Positions 5,025 through 37,147 of a stretch of DNA of 37,147 nucleotides are shown piece by piece; within the stretch, counting starts at the first letter, position 1; each line of letters starts with the position of its first letter. The stretch is taken from contig JBAXSP010000006.1 of assembly GCA_037130655.1 (NCBI GenBank), positions 1 through 37,147 of the forward strand. Direction: 5' to 3'. Under the pieces are notes generated by a model that made no database searches, was not told where the DNA came from, and saw only the letters and a list, made by a program, of their open reading frames with translations. Made by a program: the position numbers and the translations under genes. Source of the stretch: a bacterium. Lineage in GTDB: Bacteria; Patescibacteriota; Minisyncoccia; Phycocordibacterales; UBA9973.

Positions 5025-6898
<1,874 letters not shown>

Positions 6899-13998: not shown

Positions 13999-14745
13999 AT
14001 GAACGAAACTGAACAACTTAAAGCTGAGGTACAAAAACTGACCGAATTGAACGGATTAAAAAGCGACCTGATTTCAATCTCAGCTCACCAGCTACGCACG
14101 TCCCTTTCAGCGCTCAAATGGATACTCAAAATGTTTATCGACAAAGATTTTGGACCACTCACCCCTGAACAAGAAGACTTAATCAAAAAAGCATTTTCAA
14201 GTAACGAACGAATGATTGCTTTTGTGAATGAAATGCTCACGATCAACCACACTGAAGATGGCGCACTCAAATACAAATACGAAGAAGTCGATCTAATGGG
14301 ATTAATCGATGAGCTTATTTTTGATTTCTCTGGAGAAACCTATAAAAAACATATTGAGATTATTTTCCTAAAAAATAATCCTGTTAAACACATTATTGCT
14401 GATAAAGAAAAGATTCGTGTGGTATTCCAAAACTTGATTGAAAATGCAATCAAATACAGTAATGAAAATGACAAGATTTTTATTTCAGTTCACGAGCAAG
14501 AAACTGGTATTGAAGTCTCTGTCAAAGATACTGGTATTGGAATTCCTACTGAAGTACAATCGTCTATTTTCCAAAAATTCTTCCGAGCAGATAACGCAAA
14601 GACCGTTGATTCTATTGGAAGTGGTTTAGGGCTCTATACAACCAAAAACATTGTTGAATATCACGGCGGAACAATTCGTTTTGAATCGAGCGATGCTGGT
14701 ACAACTTTCTTTGTCATCCTACCCTACGTTCCACAATCTAATTAA
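13999..14745 (+). CDS. Soluble histidine kinase (HisKA + HATPase_c, no sensor domain)
   Basis: SAHQLRTSL H-box, NLIENAIKYS, DTGIGI, GSGLGLY. Confidence 0.93.
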   Translation: MNETEQLKAEVQKLTELNGLKSDLISISAHQLRTSLSALKWILKMFIDKDFGPLTPEQEDLIKKAFSSNERMIAFVNEMLTINHTEDGALKYKYEEVDLMGLIDELIFDFSGETYKKHIEIIFLKNNPVKHIIADKEKIRVVFQNLIENAIKYSNENDKIFISVHEQETGIEVSVKDTGIGIPTEVQSSIFQKFFRADNAKTVDSIGSGLGLYTTKNIVEYHGGTIRFESSDAGTTFFVILPYVPQSN

Positions 14746-14768
14746 AAGATATAACGACTACTCTTCTG

Positions 14769-14881
14769 TTTCGCGACACAAGCTTTCCTTACAGGAACTG
14801 TACACCTTTTGGATATTTTATTTCGCTTCGCTTATAAAATATCTCAAAAGGTCTTGCGCTTGTGTTCCCACACAAGCTCAC
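14769..14881 (-). repeat. Dispersed structured repeat module, copy B
   Basis: Reverse complement aligns to 18240-18350 (CGCAAGACCTTTT...AAAAGGTGTAC...CTGTAAG...GTCGCGAAA). Confidence 0.85.
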
Positions 14882-14919
14882 CCTTGCAACCTACCAAATA
14901 GTAGACTACACTAGAGCAT

Positions 14920-15291
14920 ATGGCACAAAAAATACTGATAGTTGAAGATGATTCTTTTTTACAAGGCTTAGCTGCTGGCAAATTAACCAAGAGTGGTTTT
15001 GATGTTCACACCGCAGGAAACATTGCTGAGGCGGAAAAAAACCTAGAGGAAATAGTTCCTGATCTTATTATTTTGGATCTCGTACTTCCAGGCGGAACAG
15101 ATGGTTTCGGTATTTTGAAAAAACTTCGCGAAAACGCAAAAACAAAAGAAACACCGGTAATCATTTTCTCAAACTTAGCAGAAGAAGCGGATATGAACAA
15201 AGCCAAAGAATTAGGAGCAAATGAATTCATGGTTAAATCAAACTTTACACTTGATGAACTTGTCACAAAAATTCAAGAATTACTGAAATAA
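14920..15291 (+). CDS. Single-domain response regulator
   Basis: ILIVEDD, DLIILDLVLP, PVIIFSN, GANEFMVK; upstream TTGCAA-17-TACACT. Confidence 0.95.
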   Translation: MAQKILIVEDDSFLQGLAAGKLTKSGFDVHTAGNIAEAEKNLEEIVPDLIILDLVLPGGTDGFGILKKLRENAKTKETPVIIFSNLAEEADMNKAKELGANEFMVKSNFTLDELVTKIQELLK

Positions 15292-15300
15292 TAGACTCAA

Positions 15301-15324
15301 AAAAAAGCCCCTGTTGGGGCTTTT
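15301..15324. terminator. Bidirectional terminator
   Basis: AAAAGCCCC-TGTT-GGGGCTTTT between converging genes. Confidence 0.75.
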
Positions 15325-15748
15325 ACAATTGCTTGAACCAGAGAGAATATCCTGGTTCTTTTTTCCAAGAAACACCATCTTCTTTGACCTTAAATGAAAG
15401 CACAAAAAATCTTGTGTTAGGAAAATTGACCGAAAGTTTTTTCATCTTTTTCAAAAGTGAATCTTTTTCTCCATTTTCATACCAGAGTGTATCTTTGATT
15501 AGAACACCACTGTGATGAACCGCAAATCTTCCATCATACGGATACCCTTCTCTTCTGTGTCGAAAAGCAGAATCTTGATTAAGCAGAAAACTAATCCGTT
15601 CTTCTCGAGTGGTCGATATCGAAGAAATATCCCATACAAGTGTTGAATCGAAACGCAACGGCCCCTTAGTAGATAGACCATTTTTAGGAGAATCCTCGTT
15701 TGAGTAAGAGCACGAGCAGAGCATCAAAAACAATACAATACATCTCAT
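15323..15748 (-). CDS. Hypothetical lipoprotein-like protein
   Basis: MRCIVLFLMLCS|C lipobox-like N-terminus; ORF fills the gap between the regulator and recG. Confidence 0.55.
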   Translation of the reverse strand: MRCIVLFLMLCSCSYSNEDSPKNGLSTKGPLRFDSTLVWDISSISTTREERISFLLNQDSAFRHRREGYPYDGRFAVHHSGVLIKDTLWYENGEKDSLLKKMKKLSVNFPNTRFFVLSFKVKEDGVSWKKEPGYSLWFKQL

Positions 15749-15823
15749 TGGCAATAAGTCTTAATTCCGTCATATACTCTACTCCTTTTTAAGAAATAAG
15801 CAAATCTGCGTTATACTATATAT

Positions 15824-18025
15824 ATGCAATTAGCCACCCCGATTACGAGTATTAGCCGACTGACAGACGACCAAAAAAAGGCACTTGGAAGACTTGGTCT
15901 ACACACTGTAGAAGACCTGCTTTATCACTTCCCTGCTCGGTATACTGATATTACTGATATCAAACACGTCTCTAACACAGAAGACGGTGAACGTGTCACT
16001 TTACTCGGAAAAATTCACGGGCTCAAAACAAAAAAGACCTTCAAAACAAAAACGGCTATGGCCGAAGGAGTTTTTGAAGATATCAGTGGGACAATCAAAG
16101 TTGTTTGGTTCCATCAACCATACCTGGCAAAAATGATAAAAGACGATACTATTGTCAAAATTTCTGGCATCATAACTGTTCATGAGCAATATGGTAAAAG
16201 TATACAAAATCCTGAAATAGAAAAATTGGATACGTTACCTATCGATATATCAGATTCATTGTTTGCAAACACTGACACACAACTCTCTTCTTTCGGATAC
16301 CCTGTCTATTCTGAAACACGTGGCATTACGTCGAAATGGATGTATCACACCATCCAAAAATTATTCAATCAAAATATTTTGGATAGTATTGAAGAATACA
16401 TTCCAGAACATATTTTGAAAATGTATTCATTGCCTGATATCAAAAAAGCATTGGTTTGGATTCACTCACCACAAAAAAAGGAACACGCTGAAGCAGCACG
16501 AAAACGATTTGCGTTTGAAGAAATCTTTTTGATTCAACTCATTCGACTCCAAGACAAAGCTCGCTTTGCACAAGAAAAAACCTACACCATCGAAAATACA
16601 AAAGTGCTCATCAAAGAATTTACCGACAAACTTCCCTTCCCTTTAACTGACGGACAAAATAATGCAATCAAAACAATTGCAGAAGATTTGGAAAAAGAAC
16701 ACCCAATGGCCAGACTTGTCGAAGGAGATGTTGGTAGTGGTAAAACACTCGTCGCCGCAGCTGCAGCATATGCAGTCGTCCACAACCGTCCGACAAGCAA
16801 CAAGACCCAAAAGGTTCAAACTTTTGGCAACTTGCAAGTTGCCTATATGGCACCAACTGAAATCTTGGCAACACAGCAATTTGAAAGTTTTATTGAATAT
16901 ATCAGACCAACCGGATTATCAGTTGCACTGATTACCAGTTCTGGTTGTAAAAAATTCCCATCGAAAGTAGCAAGTAACACCAAAGGTTGGACCGAAATAT
17001 CAAAAACACAATTATCAAAATGGATTGCAAATGGCGAAATTCCGGTCATTATCGGCACGCATTCACTCATCCAAAAATCAGTCAAATTCAAACATTTGGC
17101 TTTGGCTATTGTTGACGAACAACACCGCTTCGGAACTAAACAACGCCAAGCACTCGCCCGCAAAGAATCTGACAACAAAATCCACGCACCACACTTCCTC
17201 TCAATGACAGCGACCCCAATTCCCCGCACCCTCGCACTCACCCTCTATGGCGACCTTGATTTATCAATCATCGATGCGATGCCACCAGGAAGAAAACCAG
17301 TGGAAACAAAAATCATCTCACCAAATGCAAGAGAGAAAATGTATGCAGAAGTACGAAGAGAACTTGAAGCTGGGCGACAAGTCTATATTATTTGTCCGCG
17401 TATCAATGAACCTGATCCTGAACTTGAAATCAAATTACAACTCAAATCAGTTGAGACAGAAGCAAAGCGTTTGAAAAAAGATATTTTTCCAAAATATGAA
17501 ATAGACGTACTTCATTCAAAAATGAAAAAGGAAGAAAAAGACGAAACAATGAAAGCGTTCGCAAGAAAAGAAATCGATATTCTTGTAGCAACATCTGTGG
17601 TTGAAGTCGGTGTCAATGTACCAAATGCAACCGTCATCATAATCGAAGGAGCAGAACGTTTTGGTCTGTCTCAGTTGCACCAACTTCGTGGACGCGTGAT
17701 TCGTGGAACTCACCAACCATATTGTTTCTTGGTGCCGGATACCAAGAGCGACAAAACAAAAGACCGGTTGAATGCATTGGTCAATGCAAAGAATGGTTTT
17801 GAATTGGCAGAACTTGATCTCTCGCTTCGAGGCGCTGGAGAACTTTCTGGGTTCAAACAATGGGGTGTATCAGATCTCGCAATGGATGCAATCAAGAATA
17901 TCAAACTCGTTGAAATCGCTCGAAATGAAGCAAAAAAGATTATTGAAAAAGATTTGGATCTAATCACCTTCCCTCTGCTTGCTCAAAAAGCTCAAGCAAA
18001 AAATGTATTGCTTCATTTTGAATAA
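15824..18025 (+). CDS. recG: ATP-dependent DNA helicase RecG
   Basis: GDVGSGKT, MAPTEILA, DEQHRFG, MTATPIPRTL, AERFGLSQLHQLRGRV. Confidence 0.97.
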   Translation: MQLATPITSISRLTDDQKKALGRLGLHTVEDLLYHFPARYTDITDIKHVSNTEDGERVTLLGKIHGLKTKKTFKTKTAMAEGVFEDISGTIKVVWFHQPYLAKMIKDDTIVKISGIITVHEQYGKSIQNPEIEKLDTLPIDISDSLFANTDTQLSSFGYPVYSETRGITSKWMYHTIQKLFNQNILDSIEEYIPEHILKMYSLPDIKKALVWIHSPQKKEHAEAARKRFAFEEIFLIQLIRLQDKARFAQEKTYTIENTKVLIKEFTDKLPFPLTDGQNNAIKTIAEDLEKEHPMARLVEGDVGSGKTLVAAAAAYAVVHNRPTSNKTQKVQTFGNLQVAYMAPTEILATQQFESFIEYIRPTGLSVALITSSGCKKFPSKVASNTKGWTEISKTQLSKWIANGEIPVIIGTHSLIQKSVKFKHLALAIVDEQHRFGTKQRQALARKESDNKIHAPHFLSMTATPIPRTLALTLYGDLDLSIIDAMPPGRKPVETKIISPNAREKMYAEVRRELEAGRQVYIICPRINEPDPELEIKLQLKSVETEAKRLKKDIFPKYEIDVLHSKMKKEEKDETMKAFARKEIDILVATSVVEVGVNVPNATVIIIEGAERFGLSQLHQLRGRVIRGTHQPYCFLVPDTKSDKTKDRLNALVNAKNGFELAELDLSLRGAGELSGFKQWGVSDLAMDAIKNIKLVEIARNEAKKIIEKDLDLITFPLLAQKAQAKNVLLHFE

Positions 18026-18081
18026 TTGCTCAAAATACCGAGATACGGTAATATAAACGAGTAATTGAATTTATTGATTTT

Positions 18082-18155
18082 CCGCCTTTAGCTCAGTTGG
18101 TTAGAGCACAGAGCTTATACCTCTGCGGTCCTTGGTTCGAATCCAAGAAGGCGGA
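18082..18155 (+). tRNA. tRNA-Ile(UAU), CCA not encoded
   Basis: CCGCCTT/AAGGCGG acceptor stem, GCTC/GAGC D-stem, CAGAG-CTTATAC-CTCTG anticodon arm (TAT), CTTGG-TTCGAAT-CCAAG T-arm, discriminator A. Confidence 0.93.
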
Positions 18156-18376
18156 CAAGGTAGAAAATAATGAACTGCTTCATTATTTTCGACACTTGTC
18201 CGAGACGGAGGCGTAATTTTTCACCAGAAAAATAGCCGAGTGAGTTTGTGTCAAAAACACAAACGCAAGACCTTTTCAGAATTTTTGTGAGTGACAACGA
18301 AACAAAAAATCGAAAAGGTGTACGGGTTCTGTAAGAACGGGGTCGCGAAATTTTTCTGGTGAAAAATATTCGTGAC
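18156..18376 (+). repeat. tRNA-3'-associated structured element containing module copy A (18240-18350)
   Basis: Shares AATGAACTGCTTCATT, CGGAG, CGGGGTCGCGAA and ATTCGTGAC in the same order with 25947-26153. Confidence 0.8.
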
Positions 18377-18389
18377 GACAAAATTGAAA

Positions 18390-18422
18390 TTAAAAAATAT
18401 CCGCACTGCGGATATTTTTTAA
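18390..18422. terminator. Bidirectional terminator
   Basis: TTAAAAAATATCCGC-ACT-GCGGATATTTTTTAA. Confidence 0.75.
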
Positions 18423-21400
18423 TCTGTTGTAGCAGAAACATCTGCAGGTGGTGTACCTGAATCAGCAGGAGGAGCAGGTTCTTCTGTTGGCGGTGTCCCA
18501 CTATCTCCACCAGTACTTTCTTCTGCAGGAGGAGTTACGTCACCAGTATTATTACTACTACCTCCTCCGCTACTTTGGTTTGGTTGAACATTTTGTTGTT
18601 GAAGCAATTGTTGTAATTGTGTTTTTGTAATACACACATCATCCAAACACAATTCTTTTGTATGAACTTTACCGAAGAATACTTCTTGTAATGTATTGTT
18701 TGCATTTTCTAAGAATTGCTTCATGAGTGAGCCAAGTGATTGTGGTGTGTCAGTAGAAAGATCTGTCAGTGGAACAATCTTTAGATCAAGTTCTTTGATG
18801 GCATTGATTGCAGTGACAATCAAAGTCATTTGACTGACTTGTTTATATCCAAGCGCACCAGTATTTACTGCTTCTGGAATAAATTGTTCGACATTTTGAG
18901 CAATAACTCCACTGTAGAGAATTCCCCCGTCATTCAAATATGAATCAGCTTTCCATGAATATGTTTGCGGAACAATTCCCATGATAGCATCGAGTCCGCG
19001 AGTATATTCACTATGAATATCCTTCAATTTTTCATCAGAAGAACAAGAAACAATACCAGTACCGTTGGTTGCAAGCCCCACACAACCAACAAGTCCTGAA
19101 AATGTAATGGTTCCTGATGATGTAACACCAGCCGCTGCAGCAATAACACCAGAAGAGTTTACTTGGAATTGAGAAGATGCACCAACACTAAACAATGATA
19201 CTGGCGCAGATGTTCCAACACCAACGTTTCCACCGATAAATTGTGCGGCGTAGTTATTTGTTGCACCTGTTTGCGTGTTGACGGTGAGACCGTATGAGTT
19301 TGTGGCAGTACTTACTGCACCAGCTGCAATCAAAAGCGCATGAGAATTAGTGAGTGTTGTATTACTTCCTTTGATCGCACCACCTGCGATATACATATTT
19401 GCACCGTTAGTAACAGTAATAGCATTTGTTGAAGCCAGTGTTGGCATACCAAAAGCATTGGCTACAGCATTTGTCACTGTACCAGCAGCACCAGTACTTG
19501 TATCTGTATATGTTGAAGCTGTTGTGTTGATGTTGATTCCAGTAGTCCCCCATGCAGATGCAGACAAGTTTGCTCCAACATGCAACCACCCAGTAGGTAT
19601 TGTTGATGATCCGATTACTGTTTGACCAGTCCCGCGAACAGAAAAAACAGAACTACTGTTATTTTGACCATCAAATAAATAGTGTGATGAAGTAGCTCCA
19701 CTTGTGTTGAAGTTTGCTGCAATAACTCTAGTACTACTTGCGGCTTGTGTAGTTTCAAAATACCCACCATAGGCAATTGACGCAGTTCCTCCACCAGTAT
19801 TTCCAACACTACTATACACACCGTACCCAACTCTGCCGTTCACTGTTGTTGCAACAAAATATCCTCCATAACTGTTAAATGAAGTATTAGCTAGTCCATA
19901 CACAGCAATGGCAGTTCCAGGAGAATTAGTACTTGCAATCGCAGTACTATGGATACCGTAGTTAGTACCAGATGATGTTACCACCTGGTTGTCCACCTTA
20001 AGTCCATACGTTGTTGCACCAGGACTACCGTCAGCCAACACAATGTTAGCTGCTCGTAATTTTGTTGATGATGCAGATGCAGTAACTGCAACGTCCAAAC
20101 TATATGCAGGTGTTGCTGTTCCAATACCAACGTTTCCTCCGATAAATTGCGCAGCGTAGTTATTCGTTGCACCTGTTTGTGCGTTGACAGTGAGACCGTA
20201 TGAGTTTGTGGCAGTACTTACTGCACTAGCTGAGATAAGTAAGGCATGAGTGTTTGTGATAGTTGCGTTTGTACTTTTGATTGGAGCACCAGTTATAGCT
20301 AAAGTTGCAGCATCGGTGATAGTTGAAGAACCGACAAAACTATATGTTGGTGCTTGAATCAAGAAAGCTCTTTGTGTTGTAAGTGCTCCCGTGTTGAACT
20401 GCACTGTTCGAGCTAGGTTGAAGTTTACATCAGTAGCTTCTGTTGAAGTTGCGAGTGCAAGATGAGCAGCACCAGTGAGGGTAAATGCTGTTGGGCTCGT
20501 TGATGTAGCTGCTACACCTTGTGTGAATGTTGTATTACCTGTGCCGTCAATTCTCATACGAACAGCAGGTGTCGCACCAGTAACAATACCGACAGAAGTA
20601 GTACTAAGTGAACGTGATTGCAATACAAGGTCTCCAAAAGAAGAACCGTTAACACCGTTCGAACCATAGATAATAGGACCGTTAGATGACGTATATATTC
20701 CAGAAGTTACTAATCCTGTCCACTTTGTTGTGTTTGGTGTTGTATAAAAAGTAATTGCCCCACTCATTCCAAAATCATATGGAGAGTTCGGTGAAGTACT
20801 TGTACCAAAAAACATAGAAGGAGTGTTTGCTCCGTTTAAAATAGTCAAAGCTCTTTGCGGAGTAGTTCCGGACATTGCACCCAAGATAAGTGAAGTTGAT
20901 CGACCCATGATCGCCCCACCTTCAGCAGTACCGCTTGAACGACTCCAATACCCAACCTTAACACCATCAGTGCCACTTGAACGATAAAAATCACCAACTG
21001 GATAGAATGTTTCAGCCCCTGACATTGTTGCTGCATCCAAAAATTGAGCGGCCAAGTTTGTTGTCGCACCCGTTGGTGCATTGACGGTAAGTCCGTACGC
21101 CGCGGTTGCAGTAGATACTGCGCCGGCTTGCACTAAGATTCCATGAGAACTAGTGATTGTCGCATTGGTGCCTTTGATTGGAGCACCAGTTACCGCAAAT
21201 GTTGCAGCATCAGTAATCGTCGAAGCACCGACAAATGAATAGGTTGGAGCTTGGATACGAAATGCACGTTGTGTGGTTAGTGCACCGGTATTGAATTGTA
21301 CGATGCGAGCTAGGTTGAAGTTAACATCACTTGCTTCAGTTGAAGTTGCGAGTGTTGTATGTGTTGCACCAGTGAGTGTAAATGCTACCGGACTACCCGA

Positions 21401-22822
21401 AGTAGAAACACCTTGGGTAAAAGTTGTATTACCAGTACCATCAATTTGTATACGAGTATTACTTGCTTGTGATGTTCCTCCGGTCAAAAAGTATAAAGAT
21501 TTACCTGACGAACCTGTACCGATCAAAAGATTTCCACCAGAACCAGCACCGATATTGTACAAGTATGCATCATTTGCTACGCCCATCACCCCGCCAGTAT
21601 ATCCAGAACTATTGATTCCCATATCGACATATCCTGTCGTCTCACTACCATTATCTGCTGTTGCAACAACATCTGAAGAGGCTAATGTTCCCGCATTAGT
21701 GTTTTGGATATTTAATTGCAAATAACTATTGATACTACCAGTACCTTTGACAACATTTACAGAACTTGTTACACCTGCTGCAACCAATAACTTTTCTGGA
21801 TTTGTTCCATCAAAAGAAGTGGTACCGATCGCCATACGATTGTTTGCTTCATCATATGTAGAATTACCAAACAATATTGAACCTTTCGTTACGTTTGAAG
21901 TTGAAGAGAGTGTGAGATTTTCACCTGACGCAGTACCTCCAATAACTGATTGCCCTCCAGAAATTCCAGTGGAAAGATTGTTGGTAATAGTATCTACTAT
22001 GCGAGTAAGTCCTGTTGAAAAAGTGAGCGTATTTTCTTTATTGTTGAATGTAGACCAATCAGTACTTGAAAGCACACCAGTATTCGAATTATCTGCAACT
22101 GTGGTTGTAATAGATACTGACGTTGTTGATAATTGATTGGATACAGAAATAGCAATCCCATTATCATTATCACCTGCACTTGTTATAAAATCAGAAGACT
22201 GTAATTTTCCGTTGAAAGTATTCCAGTCAGACGAACTAAGATATCCGTCTGTTGCAGTATCAGCAAGATCGATAGAAATAGTATTGGCAGTATTTCGAAG
22301 CGGTAAACTGAAACTAAGAGTGTCTTGTTTTCCATTAAACATAGACCAATCAGTTGATGTCAGTAATCCTCGAGCAGAAGCAGATGCGGTAGGAAAATTA
22401 AATGTATGGACTGTTCCTGTTGAACTAATATTAAAATCACTCCCAGTTGTTCCTGTTGCAAATGTTTGTGTACTTCCAGTTAGTCCATTCAAAGACTGGA
22501 CTGCACTACTGACCCCACCTGAAATAGTCACTGTTGTAACACCACCTGATTCAGTTGCAACTACACCAGCACCGACAAAATCAAGTGCTTTTGTTTGATA
22601 GGTAAGATTTGTTCCTTCATCACGAGATTCCAAAATCCCAACAGTACAGTTTGTAGAACCAGGAGTACAAGTTGGATCGAGTGTTTCGCCTGGTGTATAT
22701 GGTGAAGTTGAAGGTGCTGCAAAAATAGTAAGACCAATTCCAAACACAACAAAAAACAACAACGAAAAAAGCAATCGCCAGTGAATGCGCACAGAAGTTG
22801 TAATGTTTTTTATTATCGACAT
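18419..22822 (-). CDS. Large fibre/adhesin-like surface protein with peptidase S74-type (intramolecular chaperone) domain
   Basis: N-terminal TM/signal; three G.L.S.DW..FN.K repeats; GNVGIGT motifs; internal ~140-aa duplication; SSDEKLKDI...GLDAIMGIVPQTYSWK...GVIAQNVEQFIPEAV; acidic Pro-rich tail. Confidence 0.8.
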   Translation of the reverse strand: MSIIKNITTSVRIHWRLLFSLLFFVVFGIGLTIFAAPSTSPYTPGETLDPTCTPGSTNCTVGILESRDEGTNLTYQTKALDFVGAGVVATESGGVTTVTISGGVSSAVQSLNGLTGSTQTFATGTTGSDFNISSTGTVHTFNFPTASASARGLLTSTDWSMFNGKQDTLSFSLPLRNTANTISIDLADTATDGYLSSSDWNTFNGKLQSSDFITSAGDNDNGIAISVSNQLSTTSVSITTTVADNSNTGVLSSTDWSTFNNKENTLTFSTGLTRIVDTITNNLSTGISGGQSVIGGTASGENLTLSSTSNVTKGSILFGNSTYDEANNRMAIGTTSFDGTNPEKLLVAAGVTSSVNVVKGTGSINSYLQLNIQNTNAGTLASSDVVATADNGSETTGYVDMGINSSGYTGGVMGVANDAYLYNIGAGSGGNLLIGTGSSGKSLYFLTGGTSQASNTRIQIDGTGNTTFTQGVSTSGSPVAFTLTGATHTTLATSTEASDVNFNLARIVQFNTGALTTQRAFRIQAPTYSFVGASTITDAATFAVTGAPIKGTNATITSSHGILVQAGAVSTATAAYGLTVNAPTGATTNLAAQFLDAATMSGAETFYPVGDFYRSSGTDGVKVGYWSRSSGTAEGGAIMGRSTSLILGAMSGTTPQRALTILNGANTPSMFFGTSTSPNSPYDFGMSGAITFYTTPNTTKWTGLVTSGIYTSSNGPIIYGSNGVNGSSFGDLVLQSRSLSTTSVGIVTGATPAVRMRIDGTGNTTFTQGVAATSTSPTAFTLTGAAHLALATSTEATDVNFNLARTVQFNTGALTTQRAFLIQAPTYSFVGSSTITDAATLAITGAPIKSTNATITNTHALLISASAVSTATNSYGLTVNAQTGATNNYAAQFIGGNVGIGTATPAYSLDVAVTASASSTKLRAANIVLADGSPGATTYGLKVDNQVVTSSGTNYGIHSTAIASTNSPGTAIAVYGLANTSFNSYGGYFVATTVNGRVGYGVYSSVGNTGGGTASIAYGGYFETTQAASSTRVIAANFNTSGATSSHYLFDGQNNSSSVFSVRGTGQTVIGSSTIPTGWLHVGANLSASAWGTTGININTTASTYTDTSTGAAGTVTNAVANAFGMPTLASTNAITVTNGANMYIAGGAIKGSNTTLTNSHALLIAAGAVSTATNSYGLTVNTQTGATNNYAAQFIGGNVGVGTSAPVSLFSVGASSQFQVNSSGVIAAAAGVTSSGTITFSGLVGCVGLATNGTGIVSCSSDEKLKDIHSEYTRGLDAIMGIVPQTYSWKADSYLNDGGILYSGVIAQNVEQFIPEAVNTGALGYKQVSQMTLIVTAINAIKELDLKIVPLTDLSTDTPQSLGSLMKQFLENANNTLQEVFFGKVHTKELCLDDVCITKTQLQQLLQQQNVQPNQSSGGGSSNNTGDVTPPAEESTGGDSGTPPTEEPAPPADSGTPPADVSATTD

Positions 22823-25458: not shown

Positions 25459-25484
25459 AAGATCATTGAAAAAGTAAAAGTCGC

Positions 25485-25552
25485 TTAGTCGTTAGTTATT
25501 AGTCATTTAGCAGATTACCTAAGTGACTAACAACCATAAGACTATCGACTAA
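25485..25552. repeat. Degenerate TTAGTCA heptamers in inverted arrangement
   Basis: TTAGTCG TTAGTTA TTAGTCA ... TGACTAA CAACCAT AAGACTA TCGACTAA. Confidence 0.65.
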
Positions 25553-25560
25553 AATAATTG

Positions 25561-25946
25561 GGGGATGCCAGGCATCGACAATGATGATTAGCCTTTTGGT
25601 GCATACCAAGCTCGTACGCAACTTGCAAAACTACGTACAAAAACTGAAATGCAAAAAACTCTTTTGCAGTAAAGTCTCCATTCTTCGGAGTGAACGACTT
25701 TGCTTTTGCTACTGCTTAATTGCGTAGTATGTTCGTCTATTTGATCCATAATAAAATAGCGCGAGCATCATATCATTATGGTAAGAAATAATTGCGTCCG
25801 AAATTATTTCCGACAATGAAGGAATCGAGTGATTGCTGGTTTGTTGTTTTGATACGACAATCATTCTAAAAAAACCAAAATAACTATGTATGTAGATTCC
25901 ATCTGCGCATCATCATTGCACTGGGGTTCGAATCCCCACATCTCCA
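25561..25946 (+). ncRNA. ssrA: tmRNA
   Basis: GGGGATG/CATCTCC-A acceptor stem with G3.U pair, TCGAC motif, TGGGG-TTCGAAT-CCCCA T-arm, tag frame 25651-25719 AKNSFAVKSPFFGVNDFAFATA*. Confidence 0.95.
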
Positions 25947-26153
25947 CATTTTTAAAACGCACAATATTTGTGCGTTTTAAAAATGTGGAGATGTGAACGA
26001 ATGAACTGCTTCATTCGTGTGGGATTCGAACGGCCGGAGCCATAGTTGCCTTGCAACAGGCGAGGCGGGGTCGCGAACACTTAGTAGAATTGGAGCTAAA
26101 GCGAACAATTATACTTAGTGATTCGTGACTCAAATCCGCCCACCATCTCCACA
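25947..26153 (+). repeat. tmRNA-3'-associated structured element
   Basis: 28-bp perfect inverted repeat 25937-25964/25968-25995, motifs shared with 18156-18376, and a direct copy CATCTCCACA at 26144-26153. Confidence 0.8.
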
Positions 26154-32556: not shown

Positions 32557-32630
32557 ATATATTATAAGGATAATTACTAAACAATATCGGTATCATAACA
32601 AAAAAGACCTTTATTTCAAAGTCTTTTTTA

Positions 32631-32661
32631 TTAGTCATTAGTCACCGGTCATTAGTCATTA
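32631..32661. repeat. TTAGTCA heptamer array overlapping a stop codon
   Basis: TTAGTCA TTAGTCA CCGGTCA TTAGTCA TTA. Confidence 0.75.
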
Positions 32662-37071: not shown

Positions 37072-37085
37072 ATAAGGTAATTATA

Positions 37086-37147
37086 TAATGACTAATGACT
37101 AATGACTAATGACTAATGACTAATGACTAATGACTAATGACTAATGA
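37086..37147. repeat. Perfect TAATGAC tandem array running off the window end
   Basis: Eight complete units plus TAATGA. Confidence 0.95.

Follow-up and report, generated by a model that had tools for sequence, protein, structure and literature searches.

The 37,147-nt contig JBAXSP010000006.1 of the assembly GCA_037130655.1, from a bacterium of the lineage Patescibacteriota (Minisyncoccia, Phycocordibacterales, UBA9973), carries two related sequences of about 110 nt, one read as the reverse complement of positions 14769-14881 and the other at 18240-18350, and the locus raises the question of what kind of element these sequences represent. The window analyzed here is this whole contig, one of the nine of a 630-kb genome of 38% G+C that is rated 100% complete. 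An earlier note on the window had described a dispersed module of about 110 nt with covarying stems, either mobile and non-autonomous or a structured RNA, that could not be assigned to a known family. We propose, with a probability of roughly 0.6, that it is a non-autonomous insertion module defined by its structure, or the conserved core of such a module, that would act in the form of a folded single strand. The module is part of a large family of small, modular insertion elements without genes that is restricted to the Patescibacteria (the candidate phyla radiation, CPR).

Two copies of a folded module

The two sequences are 77.4% identical over 115 aligned positions (blastn E 1e-16), and an all-against-all repeat scan of the window recovers them as the inverted-repeat pairs I3 and I4, in agreement with the match that had been noticed before. 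The module proper is somewhat shorter, about 98 nt, and covers 14784-14881 on the minus strand for copy A (91 bits, E 4.7e-16 with our covariance model R1) and 18240-18338 on the plus strand for copy B (81.5 bits with the same model). Both copies form three hairpins (fold z-scores of -4.6 for copy A and -2.9 for copy B) and follow the order GTGAG-P1-GCAAG-P2-GUAC-P3, the P3 loop being CUGUAAG; copies of this order are called type i below. In copy A, GTGAG lies at 14877-14881, the hairpin P1 at 14858-14877, the linker GCAAG at 14853-14857, the long hairpin P2, with its apical RAGY...RCGAA motif, at 14804-14852, the linker GTAC at 14800-14803 and P3, with a stem of 4-5 bp, at 14784-14798, all on the minus strand. 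The same parts are found on the plus strand in copy B at 18240-18244 (GTGAG), 18244-18264 (P1), 18265-18269 (GCAAG), 18270-18319 (P2), 18320-18323 (GTAC) and 18326-18338 (P3).

The stems of the two copies differ in a compensated manner, with P1 arms GCTTGTGT/ACACAAGC in copy A versus GTTTGTGT/ACACAAAC in copy B and P3 arms GTTCC/GGAA(A) versus GTTC/GAAC, and no difference is seen in the linkers GCAAG and GTAC or in the loop TGTAA, as had been claimed. The proposed length has to be corrected at one end: the dispersed module is real, and the last nine bases of the original match, GTCGCGAAA (14769-14777 and 18342-18350), lie outside it and belong to another repeat, element Y. In the 3' flank of copy A (14769-14783, minus strand), a 9-nt direct repeat of the P1 5' arm, AGCTTGTGT (14776-14784), overlaps GTCGCGAAA.

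Covariation of the stems

When 14 copies of the host genome were compared, 17 of the 25 pairs had changed on both sides and 93.4% of the cells were paired, a level reached by none of 500 shuffles, and sliding the 3' partners lowered the pairing to 37-50%. With 50 distinct copies from about 35 genomes, 22 of the 25 pairs were double-changed and 95.1% of the cells paired (again 0 of 500 shuffles), in an alignment that was fitted to the model and is hence somewhat favourable to pairing. As an unbiased check, 23 full-length modules, drawn from 18 genomes, were aligned with plain MAFFT and folded with RNAalifold, which predicts P1, P2 and P3, and 24 of 28 pairs, including all six P1 pairs, are kept through changes on both sides. 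The covarying structure put forward in the earlier note is thus confirmed in three alignments.

The unpaired parts GTGAG, GCAAG, GUAC and CUGUAAG and the P2 apex RAGY...RCGAA are near-invariant across the order. On the module strand 38 cells hold G-U or U-G against 6 with A-C or C-A, an excess that points to selection on the single-stranded form of this strand. The fold probably acts in the single-stranded sense strand, as single-stranded DNA or as a transcript, and the data are compatible with both. Two metatranscriptome runs of the same sample gave no contig at 13500-19500, a result that speaks neither for nor against transcription.

The hairpin P3 also has the size and pattern of an anticodon arm of the GUA (Tyr) type when compared with the tRNA-Tyr of the same genome, with a 5-bp stem and a 7-nt loop C-U-GUA-A-G (loops at 14794-14788 and 18329-18335). 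The invariant linker GUAC directly upstream of P3 contains UAC, which is complementary to the GUA of the loop.

Copy number and distribution

In the 630 kb of the host genome, iterated nhmmer searches found 15 copies of the core (P2, GUAC, P3), and a covariance model built from 14 of them found 16, numbers that set aside a chance resemblance between copies A and B. Nine of the 16 copies stand 40-250 nt behind a tRNA gene of the same strand, as described below. The other seven are of type i and occupy positions between protein genes or at their ends, in both orientations, copy A and the copy at C3:120548 (host-genome contigs being numbered C1, C2 and so on) being antisense to both neighbouring genes. 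The upstream flanks of 25 type-i copies have nothing in common beyond GTGAG.

The search of CPR relatives, which had been suggested as a check, yielded many more copies: the covariance model matches 60 of 101 genomes of the same order (E<=1e-3), with 1-38 matches each. The distribution is patchy, since only 34 of the 60 genomes of the same family hold the module. An exact core pattern of 22-25 nt occurs in at least 117 stretches of species-representative genomes; among the 80 matches listed, about 12 have titles that read only "bacterium" and all others name Patescibacteria-type lineages (Paceibacterota/Parcubacteria, Kaiser-, Taylor-, Nomura-, Adler- and Zambryskiibacteria, Minisyncoccia and "Saccharibacteria"). 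In viral contigs the strict core pattern had no match, and a looser one had three, which reach 18 bits with the model and in which P3 does not pair.

Presence and absence between congeners

Copy A lies between a histidine-kinase gene (13999-14745, Pfam HisKA/HATPase_c) and a response-regulator gene. In G003, a genome of the same genus whose flanks are 84-94% identical, these two genes directly follow each other, and a block of about 160 nt of the window (14715 to about 14880) is absent. The insert begins with a spare, diverged 3' end of the kinase gene, fused to the gene, that comprises the last 10 codons and the stop (14715-14745, plus strand; alignment with G003:C23), and the displaced original end is found just past copy A (14881-14902, plus strand, with its TAG at 14900-14902). 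This distal copy is the native one, almost unchanged and near-identical to the functional end in G003. The last residues of the spare end read VILPYVPQSN versus VRLPLQPTK in G003; its divergence greatly exceeds that of the flanks, so that it cannot be a recent target-site duplication.

The converse case is also found: G003 carries a module-bearing insert of 215 nt at a site that is empty in the host genome (C1:52938/9), and a second one at the site that matches C2:154023-154152. The empty sites in relatives that the earlier note had called for thus exist in both directions. One copy, C2:77943, is common to the host genome and G003 at the same locus and is about 95% identical. The tRNA-Ile(UAU) of another genome, G001, which is 96% identical to that of the window, stands at another locus and has no cassette behind it. 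Furthermore, the divergent tRNA-Gly(GCC)/tRNA-Arg(UCG) pair is inverted between the host genome (C4:29133-29632) and G003 (C12:17900-19100) and lies between two inverted module copies, which suggests recombination between module copies.

A different small element family is represented at C2:154881-155014, where an insert of 134 nt with perfect 10-bp inverted ends is absent at the G003 site.

Nesting of copy B in element Y

Element Y, with copy B inside it, stands downstream of tRNA-Ile (anticodon UAU; 18082-18156, plus strand; ARAGORN, and Rfam tRNA with 70.4 bits), an anticodon that is uncommon in bacteria. Element Y consists of GCCGGAGCC, a hairpin with an ACCA loop, CGAG-N-CGGGGTCG, a hairpin with a TGGT loop and ATTCGTGAC. 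Behind tRNA-Ile, its 5' half (GACGGAGGCG, the ACCA-loop hairpin and ...GCCGAG; 18204-18239, plus strand) is separated from its 3' half (GGGGTCGCGAA, the TGGT-loop hairpin and ATTCGTGAC; 18339-18376, plus strand) by the module, which sits between ...GCCGAG and CGGGGTCGCG. Uninterrupted Y, with CGAG and CGGGGTCG one base (G or T) apart, stands behind tRNA-Trp, Cys, Lys(UUU) and Arg(GCG); blast searches with the Y halves gave matches elsewhere in the genome at C2:118560, C2:126150, C4:62672 and C7:15981, and the further copies extend over C2:118560-118640, C2:126120-126200, C4:62670-62750 and C7:15980-16060. In a variant Y behind the tmRNA gene of the window (26033-26129), the same flanks are joined by a single G (26061-26078). 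The nesting between CGAG and CGGGG, read earlier from the tRNA and tmRNA loci, is therefore well founded and is extended by four more uninterrupted copies. Since a degraded 3' half of Y also follows copy A, the two window copies share a piece of the host element too.

The outer segments of Y can pair with each other, two of the pairs being G-T wobbles, and in this they resemble a fossil antisense/sense T-arm pair from an older cassette taken along as cargo.

Composite cassettes behind tRNA and tmRNA genes

The module is often found at the tip of a composite cassette that directly follows a tRNA or tmRNA gene or, in one case, lies in the end of a protein gene. The tRNAs that precede the nine host-genome copies are Gln, Leu(CAA), Tyr, Leu(UAA), Gly(GCC), Arg(UCG), Lys(UUU), Ile(UAU) and Met. 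The cassettes have a recurrent order: (i) the tRNA, (ii) a terminator-like hairpin, (iii) the reverse complement of the 3' strand of the acceptor, (iv) a small conserved hairpin followed by CGAG, (v) the reverse complement of the T-loop and the 3' side of the T-stem, (vi) the cargo, which is either P2-GUAC-P3 or Y, and (vii) a second sense copy of the tRNA segment between T-loop and 3' end. Together, the tRNA end, the hairpin and the complement make an unbroken palindrome, close to perfect, with arms of 25-30 bp. As true complements of the 3' end, and not copies of the tRNA 5' half, the antisense pieces extend over the discriminator and the next base and pair with T-loop bases; the types of mismatch in these arms are dominated by end effects and chance matches. 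In the host genome, direct repeats of the 3' end were found 116-179 nt downstream of tRNA-Trp, Tyr, Gly(GCC), Arg(TCG), Arg(GCG) and Met, with 15-17 of 17 positions matching.

This arrangement is not restricted to one genome. Among 86 copies at 80 foreign loci, 39 have a same-strand tRNA that ends less than 400 nt upstream, and in 28 of these 39 an exact repeat of at least 9 nt (mostly 13-24 nt) of the tRNA 3' end comes right after P3, 13 copies being too close to the edge of their locus to be judged. An antisense copy (at least 11 of 14 positions) was found 5-115 nt downstream of 41 of 231 tRNAs versus 0 of 232 upstream in the same test. No gene end matching the P1 arm was found in a search of the host genome.

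The tmRNA gene of the window (25561-25949, Rfam) is followed by a cassette of the same kind (25950-26153, plus strand; inverted repeat I15). It begins with a perfect 28-bp hairpin in which the tmRNA 3' end and its complement are included, a small hairpin and a Y-like core CGAG-G-CGGGG (26061-26078), and continues with a P2-like hairpin with a GAGC...GCGAA apex, ATTCGTGAC and a second T-arm/acceptor 3' end (26130-26153). The 5' arm of the 28-bp hairpin (25937-25995) consists of the last 13 bases of the tmRNA and the following bases, and the hairpin could sequester the 3' end of the tmRNA in a read-through transcript.

Search for a mobilization enzyme

An HUH transposase, which the earlier note had suggested might accompany the module, is not encoded in this genome, rated 100% complete: PF01797 (Y1 HUH) gave 0 matches, and control genomes were positive. 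The other families searched, namely the TnpB zinc ribbon, the IS110 DEDD domain, serine recombinases or resolvases and rve, were not found in the genome either. No protein recurs beside the module among 351 open reading frames (ORFs) within 1.2 kb of copies at about 109 loci, and the largest cluster of neighbours, present at 8 of these loci, is a housekeeping GTPase. The genome holds a single gene of the Phage_integrase family, which is Xer-like and lies at C4:23918-24925 between rpsO and the exonuclease III gene.

A reverse transcriptase, also suggested as a companion, does not follow the module. The only one in the genome is a UG19-class defence reverse transcriptase, and across relatives RVT_1 occurs in 45 of 101 genomes and is missing from the copy-rich G003 (11 copies), G023 (16), G073 (19), G077 (14) and G085 (22). 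The UG19 protein (C2:99512-101602, minus strand, 697 residues) is encoded directly after the cassette of tRNA-Gln (C2:101833-101904), a cassette that lacks the second sense copy; it may be the cargo of a larger insertion at tRNA-Gln, and no second tRNA-Gln end was found beyond its gene.

Other candidate partners and roles were also rejected. The queuine transglycosylase was considered with P3 as a substrate or decoy (UGU in a 7-nt loop); the enzyme is found in 96 of 101 relatives, was not found in G073 and G074, which hold 19 and 8 copies, and is thus not required. YraN/UPF0102, encoded beside 6 loci, is present in 87 of 101 relatives and missing from the copy-bearing G006, G069 and G088, its adjacency to copies being due to synteny with the tRNA-Gly/Arg pair. 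Finally, the TGA of GTGAG serves as a stop for the upstream gene in 1 of 35 type-i copies, with 3 and 0 in the control frames.

Comparison with known families

Rfam 15 gave no match at the gathering threshold over either window copy, nor at E<=10 over 14500-18700, and ten other copy-bearing loci gave only tRNAs and chance-level matches at E<=0.1, so that the statement that no known family fits is upheld at all loci scanned. ARAGORN and the Rfam tRNA model call only bona fide tRNAs and not the modules.

REP (repetitive extragenic palindromic) sequences have a short fixed motif 5' of a hairpin, and the module resembles them in this respect, with GUAC before P3 and GTGAG before P1. Like REP/BIME sequences (mobilized by RAYT, a Y1 HUH enzyme) and the PATEs derived from IS200/IS605, it is short, non-coding, hairpin-forming, multi-copy, mostly intergenic and non-autonomous, with a conserved structure. 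It differs from REP/BIME by the lack of a Y1 HUH gene in the genome and by its three distinct hairpins over about 98 nt, compared with a single palindrome of 20-40 nt with a 5' tetranucleotide, and from REP and PATEs by the absence of a replication-strand bias (8:8) and by the associated duplicated gene ends.

Rickettsia palindromic elements (RPE) and repeats resembling miniature inverted-repeat transposable elements (MITE) are likewise folded and gene-less, of about 100-150 nt, occur in the small genomes of host-dependent bacteria, and land in or beside genes and RNA genes without destroying them, as the module does. The lineages are unrelated and RPE were compared by description only, and a probable difference from RPE and MITE is that the module has no terminal inverted repeats of its own. 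Its ends (GTGAG...P3) are not inverted repeats; the composite 215-nt insert of G003 has inverted ends of 12 bp, copy A has the 9-nt flanking repeat, and other copies have neither. To our knowledge, a spare and an antisense copy of the end of the target gene form no part of the description of RPE or MITE.

Integron attC sites and the attP(+) hairpin of the CTX phage, recombined by Xer, share with the module a conserved structure, a favoured strand and the lack of an element-borne enzyme. As a further likeness, folding of the sense arm onto the antisense arm in the tRNA cassettes can reproduce the target as a duplex from which hairpins bulge out, and a Xer-type recombinase is the only recombinase found in the genome. 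The targets, unlike those of attC and attP(+), are tRNA, tmRNA and gene ends and not dif or attI, and the sequence of the module is conserved too. No integron integrase or cassette ORFs were found, the cassettes holding no ORF.

The cassettes also recall the integrative elements that target tRNA and tmRNA genes and their integrase-less derivatives, the cis-mobilizable elements (CIMEs), in which a direct repeat from the T-loop to the 3' end brackets the insert, the gene stays intact and the tmRNA is also used; the direct repeats that define CIMEs are present in the composite cassettes and not in the module alone. Unlike these elements, the inserts are gene-less and of 150-250 nt, many tRNAs are used with matched arms, an extra antisense copy is present and many copies lie away from tRNAs. 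Neither an integrase in the element nor an integrase-bearing parent was found among the neighbouring ORFs, in the host genome or in viral contigs. As for group II (class C) introns, the loci gave no Rfam group II intron match, and only the position after terminators is alike.

Overall, the module is closest in kind to the interspersed repeats of the REP/RPE/MITE type, and the target-matched sense and antisense arms of the cassettes are no part of any described family against which they were compared. We found no description of such elements in Patescibacteria in the articles searched, including one on genetic exchange in Patescibacteria (PMC12455944), lists of repeats or non-coding RNAs possibly being held in their supplements.

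Alternative explanations

The best surviving alternative, which we nevertheless consider rather unlikely, is a structured RNA useful to the host, either a small RNA or a cis domain, that would be co-transcribed with tRNAs or other neighbours, cut out by tRNA-processing enzymes as a minihelix-like substrate, with the antisense and sense tRNA arms as its frame, and bound by a host protein through its loops. The compensatory changes in all three stems, the 38:6 ratio of G-U to A-C on one strand, the near-invariant unpaired motifs across the order, the same-strand placement behind tRNA genes of 9 of the 16 copies and the anticodon-arm size and loop pattern of P3 would all suit such an RNA. It fits poorly with the 41 of 101 relatives, among them 26 of the 60 in the same family, in which the module is absent (E<=1e-3), and with the gain and loss of copies between congeners and copy numbers of 1-38. 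Moreover, the upstream flanks of type-i copies, sharing only GTGAG, offer no common promoter, copy A and the copy at C3:120548 each run antisense to the genes on either side, and the module is nested inside other repeats and matches no Rfam family.

It is more improbable that the cassettes are scars of phages or islands that used the T-loop of tRNA and tmRNA genes as their integration site and, on subsequent deletion, left fused attL/attR remnants with the module as a leftover attP arm. Tyrosine integrases that target tRNA genes classically give a repeat of the stretch between T-loop and 3' end; such a repeat is found here in the 28 foreign cases and in the host genome, with tmRNA as a further target, and the divergence of the spare kinase end from the native one is as expected of imported DNA. 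However, the module stands behind at least nine tRNA species in one genome with matched arms, whereas one integrase and its attP would serve one target, and the antisense copy of the target (41 of 231 versus 0 of 232) is not predicted by such events. In addition, the stems show hairpin covariation, which is not required of protein-binding arms in duplex form, the cassettes of 150-250 nt have no integrase, the core pattern has no strict match and three weak, non-pairing ones in viral contigs, and 7 of the 16 host-genome copies are not at tRNA genes.

Least probable of all is growth without any dedicated mobility, by template switching during replication (palindrome extension) and homologous exchange between strains, with the sense-antisense-sense order as a by-product of fold-back synthesis: the continuous palindromes of tRNA end, terminator and antisense copy (25-30 bp per arm), the lack of a transposase among the families searched and the tRNA-Gly/Arg inversion relative to G003, which suggests that copies recombine, are in its favour, but it leaves unexplained a conserved 98-nt sequence at unrelated loci and in hundreds of genomes, an antisense copy into which a conserved hairpin and CGAG are set at a constant position, and repeats that start at the T-loop with little scatter.

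A proposed non-autonomous insertion module

Insertion of a non-autonomous element, the first of the two natures considered in the earlier note, is supported by the presence and absence of copies between congeners, by the nesting in element Y and by the lack of a recurrent mobilization gene. We infer that the module is selfish or at least insertional DNA that is unable to move alone. Several observations weigh against this interpretation. The alignment behind the G-U excess was fitted to a model of the same strand, and the excess is due in part to inherited pairs; the near-invariance of GUAC, CUGUAAG and the P2 apex suits a host-useful RNA equally well. The orthologous copy shared with G003 is about 95% identical versus 72-94% for its flanks, which is compatible with constraint. 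Type-i copies are generally without a target duplication, the exceptions being the 9-nt repeat at copy A and an approximate one at a single copy of G003. The orientation relative to GC skew (8 leading and 8 lagging copies) gives no support for a lagging-strand-template rule of the IS200/IS605 or attC kind. No mover was found among the enzyme families searched, the lone tyrosine recombinase has a housekeeping, Xer-like context with nothing that ties it to the module, and neither movement nor an intermediate or joined form was seen in the DNA contigs examined.

How an insertion module of this kind might work can be sketched by analogy with attC and the CTX attP. The folded module would be the structure recognized by a factor supplied in trans, for which the single Xer-type tyrosine recombinase is the only recognizable candidate in this genome. 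The sense and antisense arms of the cassette would let a single strand fold into a duplex image of the target, and recombination or copy-choice at the target could then insert the spare gene end and push the old end downstream; an exchange at the T-loop would give the observed order of spare end, hairpin, antisense copy, cargo and old end. Template switching by the replication machinery at the hairpins could provide an enzyme-free alternative for this step. In its fullest form, which we put forward tentatively and would not bet on, this amounts to a programmable, integrase-free insertion system, in which a folded DNA or RNA strand with antisense address arms would home to the end of a tRNA, tmRNA or protein gene, bring a spare end and displace the old one, the module being the part recognized by a host enzyme or one acting in trans.

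Other features of the window

The 16S rRNA gene (5025-6898) is 1874 nt long versus 1533 positions of the model, with two related palindromic inserts of 70 nt inside (5404-5475 and 5647-5720). Runs of the heptamer AATGACT/TAATGAC, direct and inverted, are found at the contig end and before the tmRNA gene (37077-37147, 32630-32661 and 25480-25540). The region 18419-22822 (minus strand) encodes a protein of 1467 residues with internal repeats of about 900 nt (families D1 and D2) and, at its C terminus, a Peptidase_S74 (endosialidase chaperone) domain of the kind known from phage tail fibres or surface proteins.

Significance

Patescibacteria make up a large share of bacterial diversity and have tiny genomes that are thought to be poor in mobile elements. 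The present 630-kb genome nonetheless carries 16 copies of the module together with several sister elements, and relatives carry up to 38. The elements alter tRNA trailers, substitute gene ends and favour inversions, and are thus relevant to annotation and to the evolution of these genomes. If the module is an RNA, it would be among the most widespread unnamed RNA motifs of the lineage. If the antisense arms direct the insertion, the cassettes would represent a compact and naturally programmable placement of DNA at gene ends without an element-encoded enzyme, which would be of mechanistic and possibly of practical interest.

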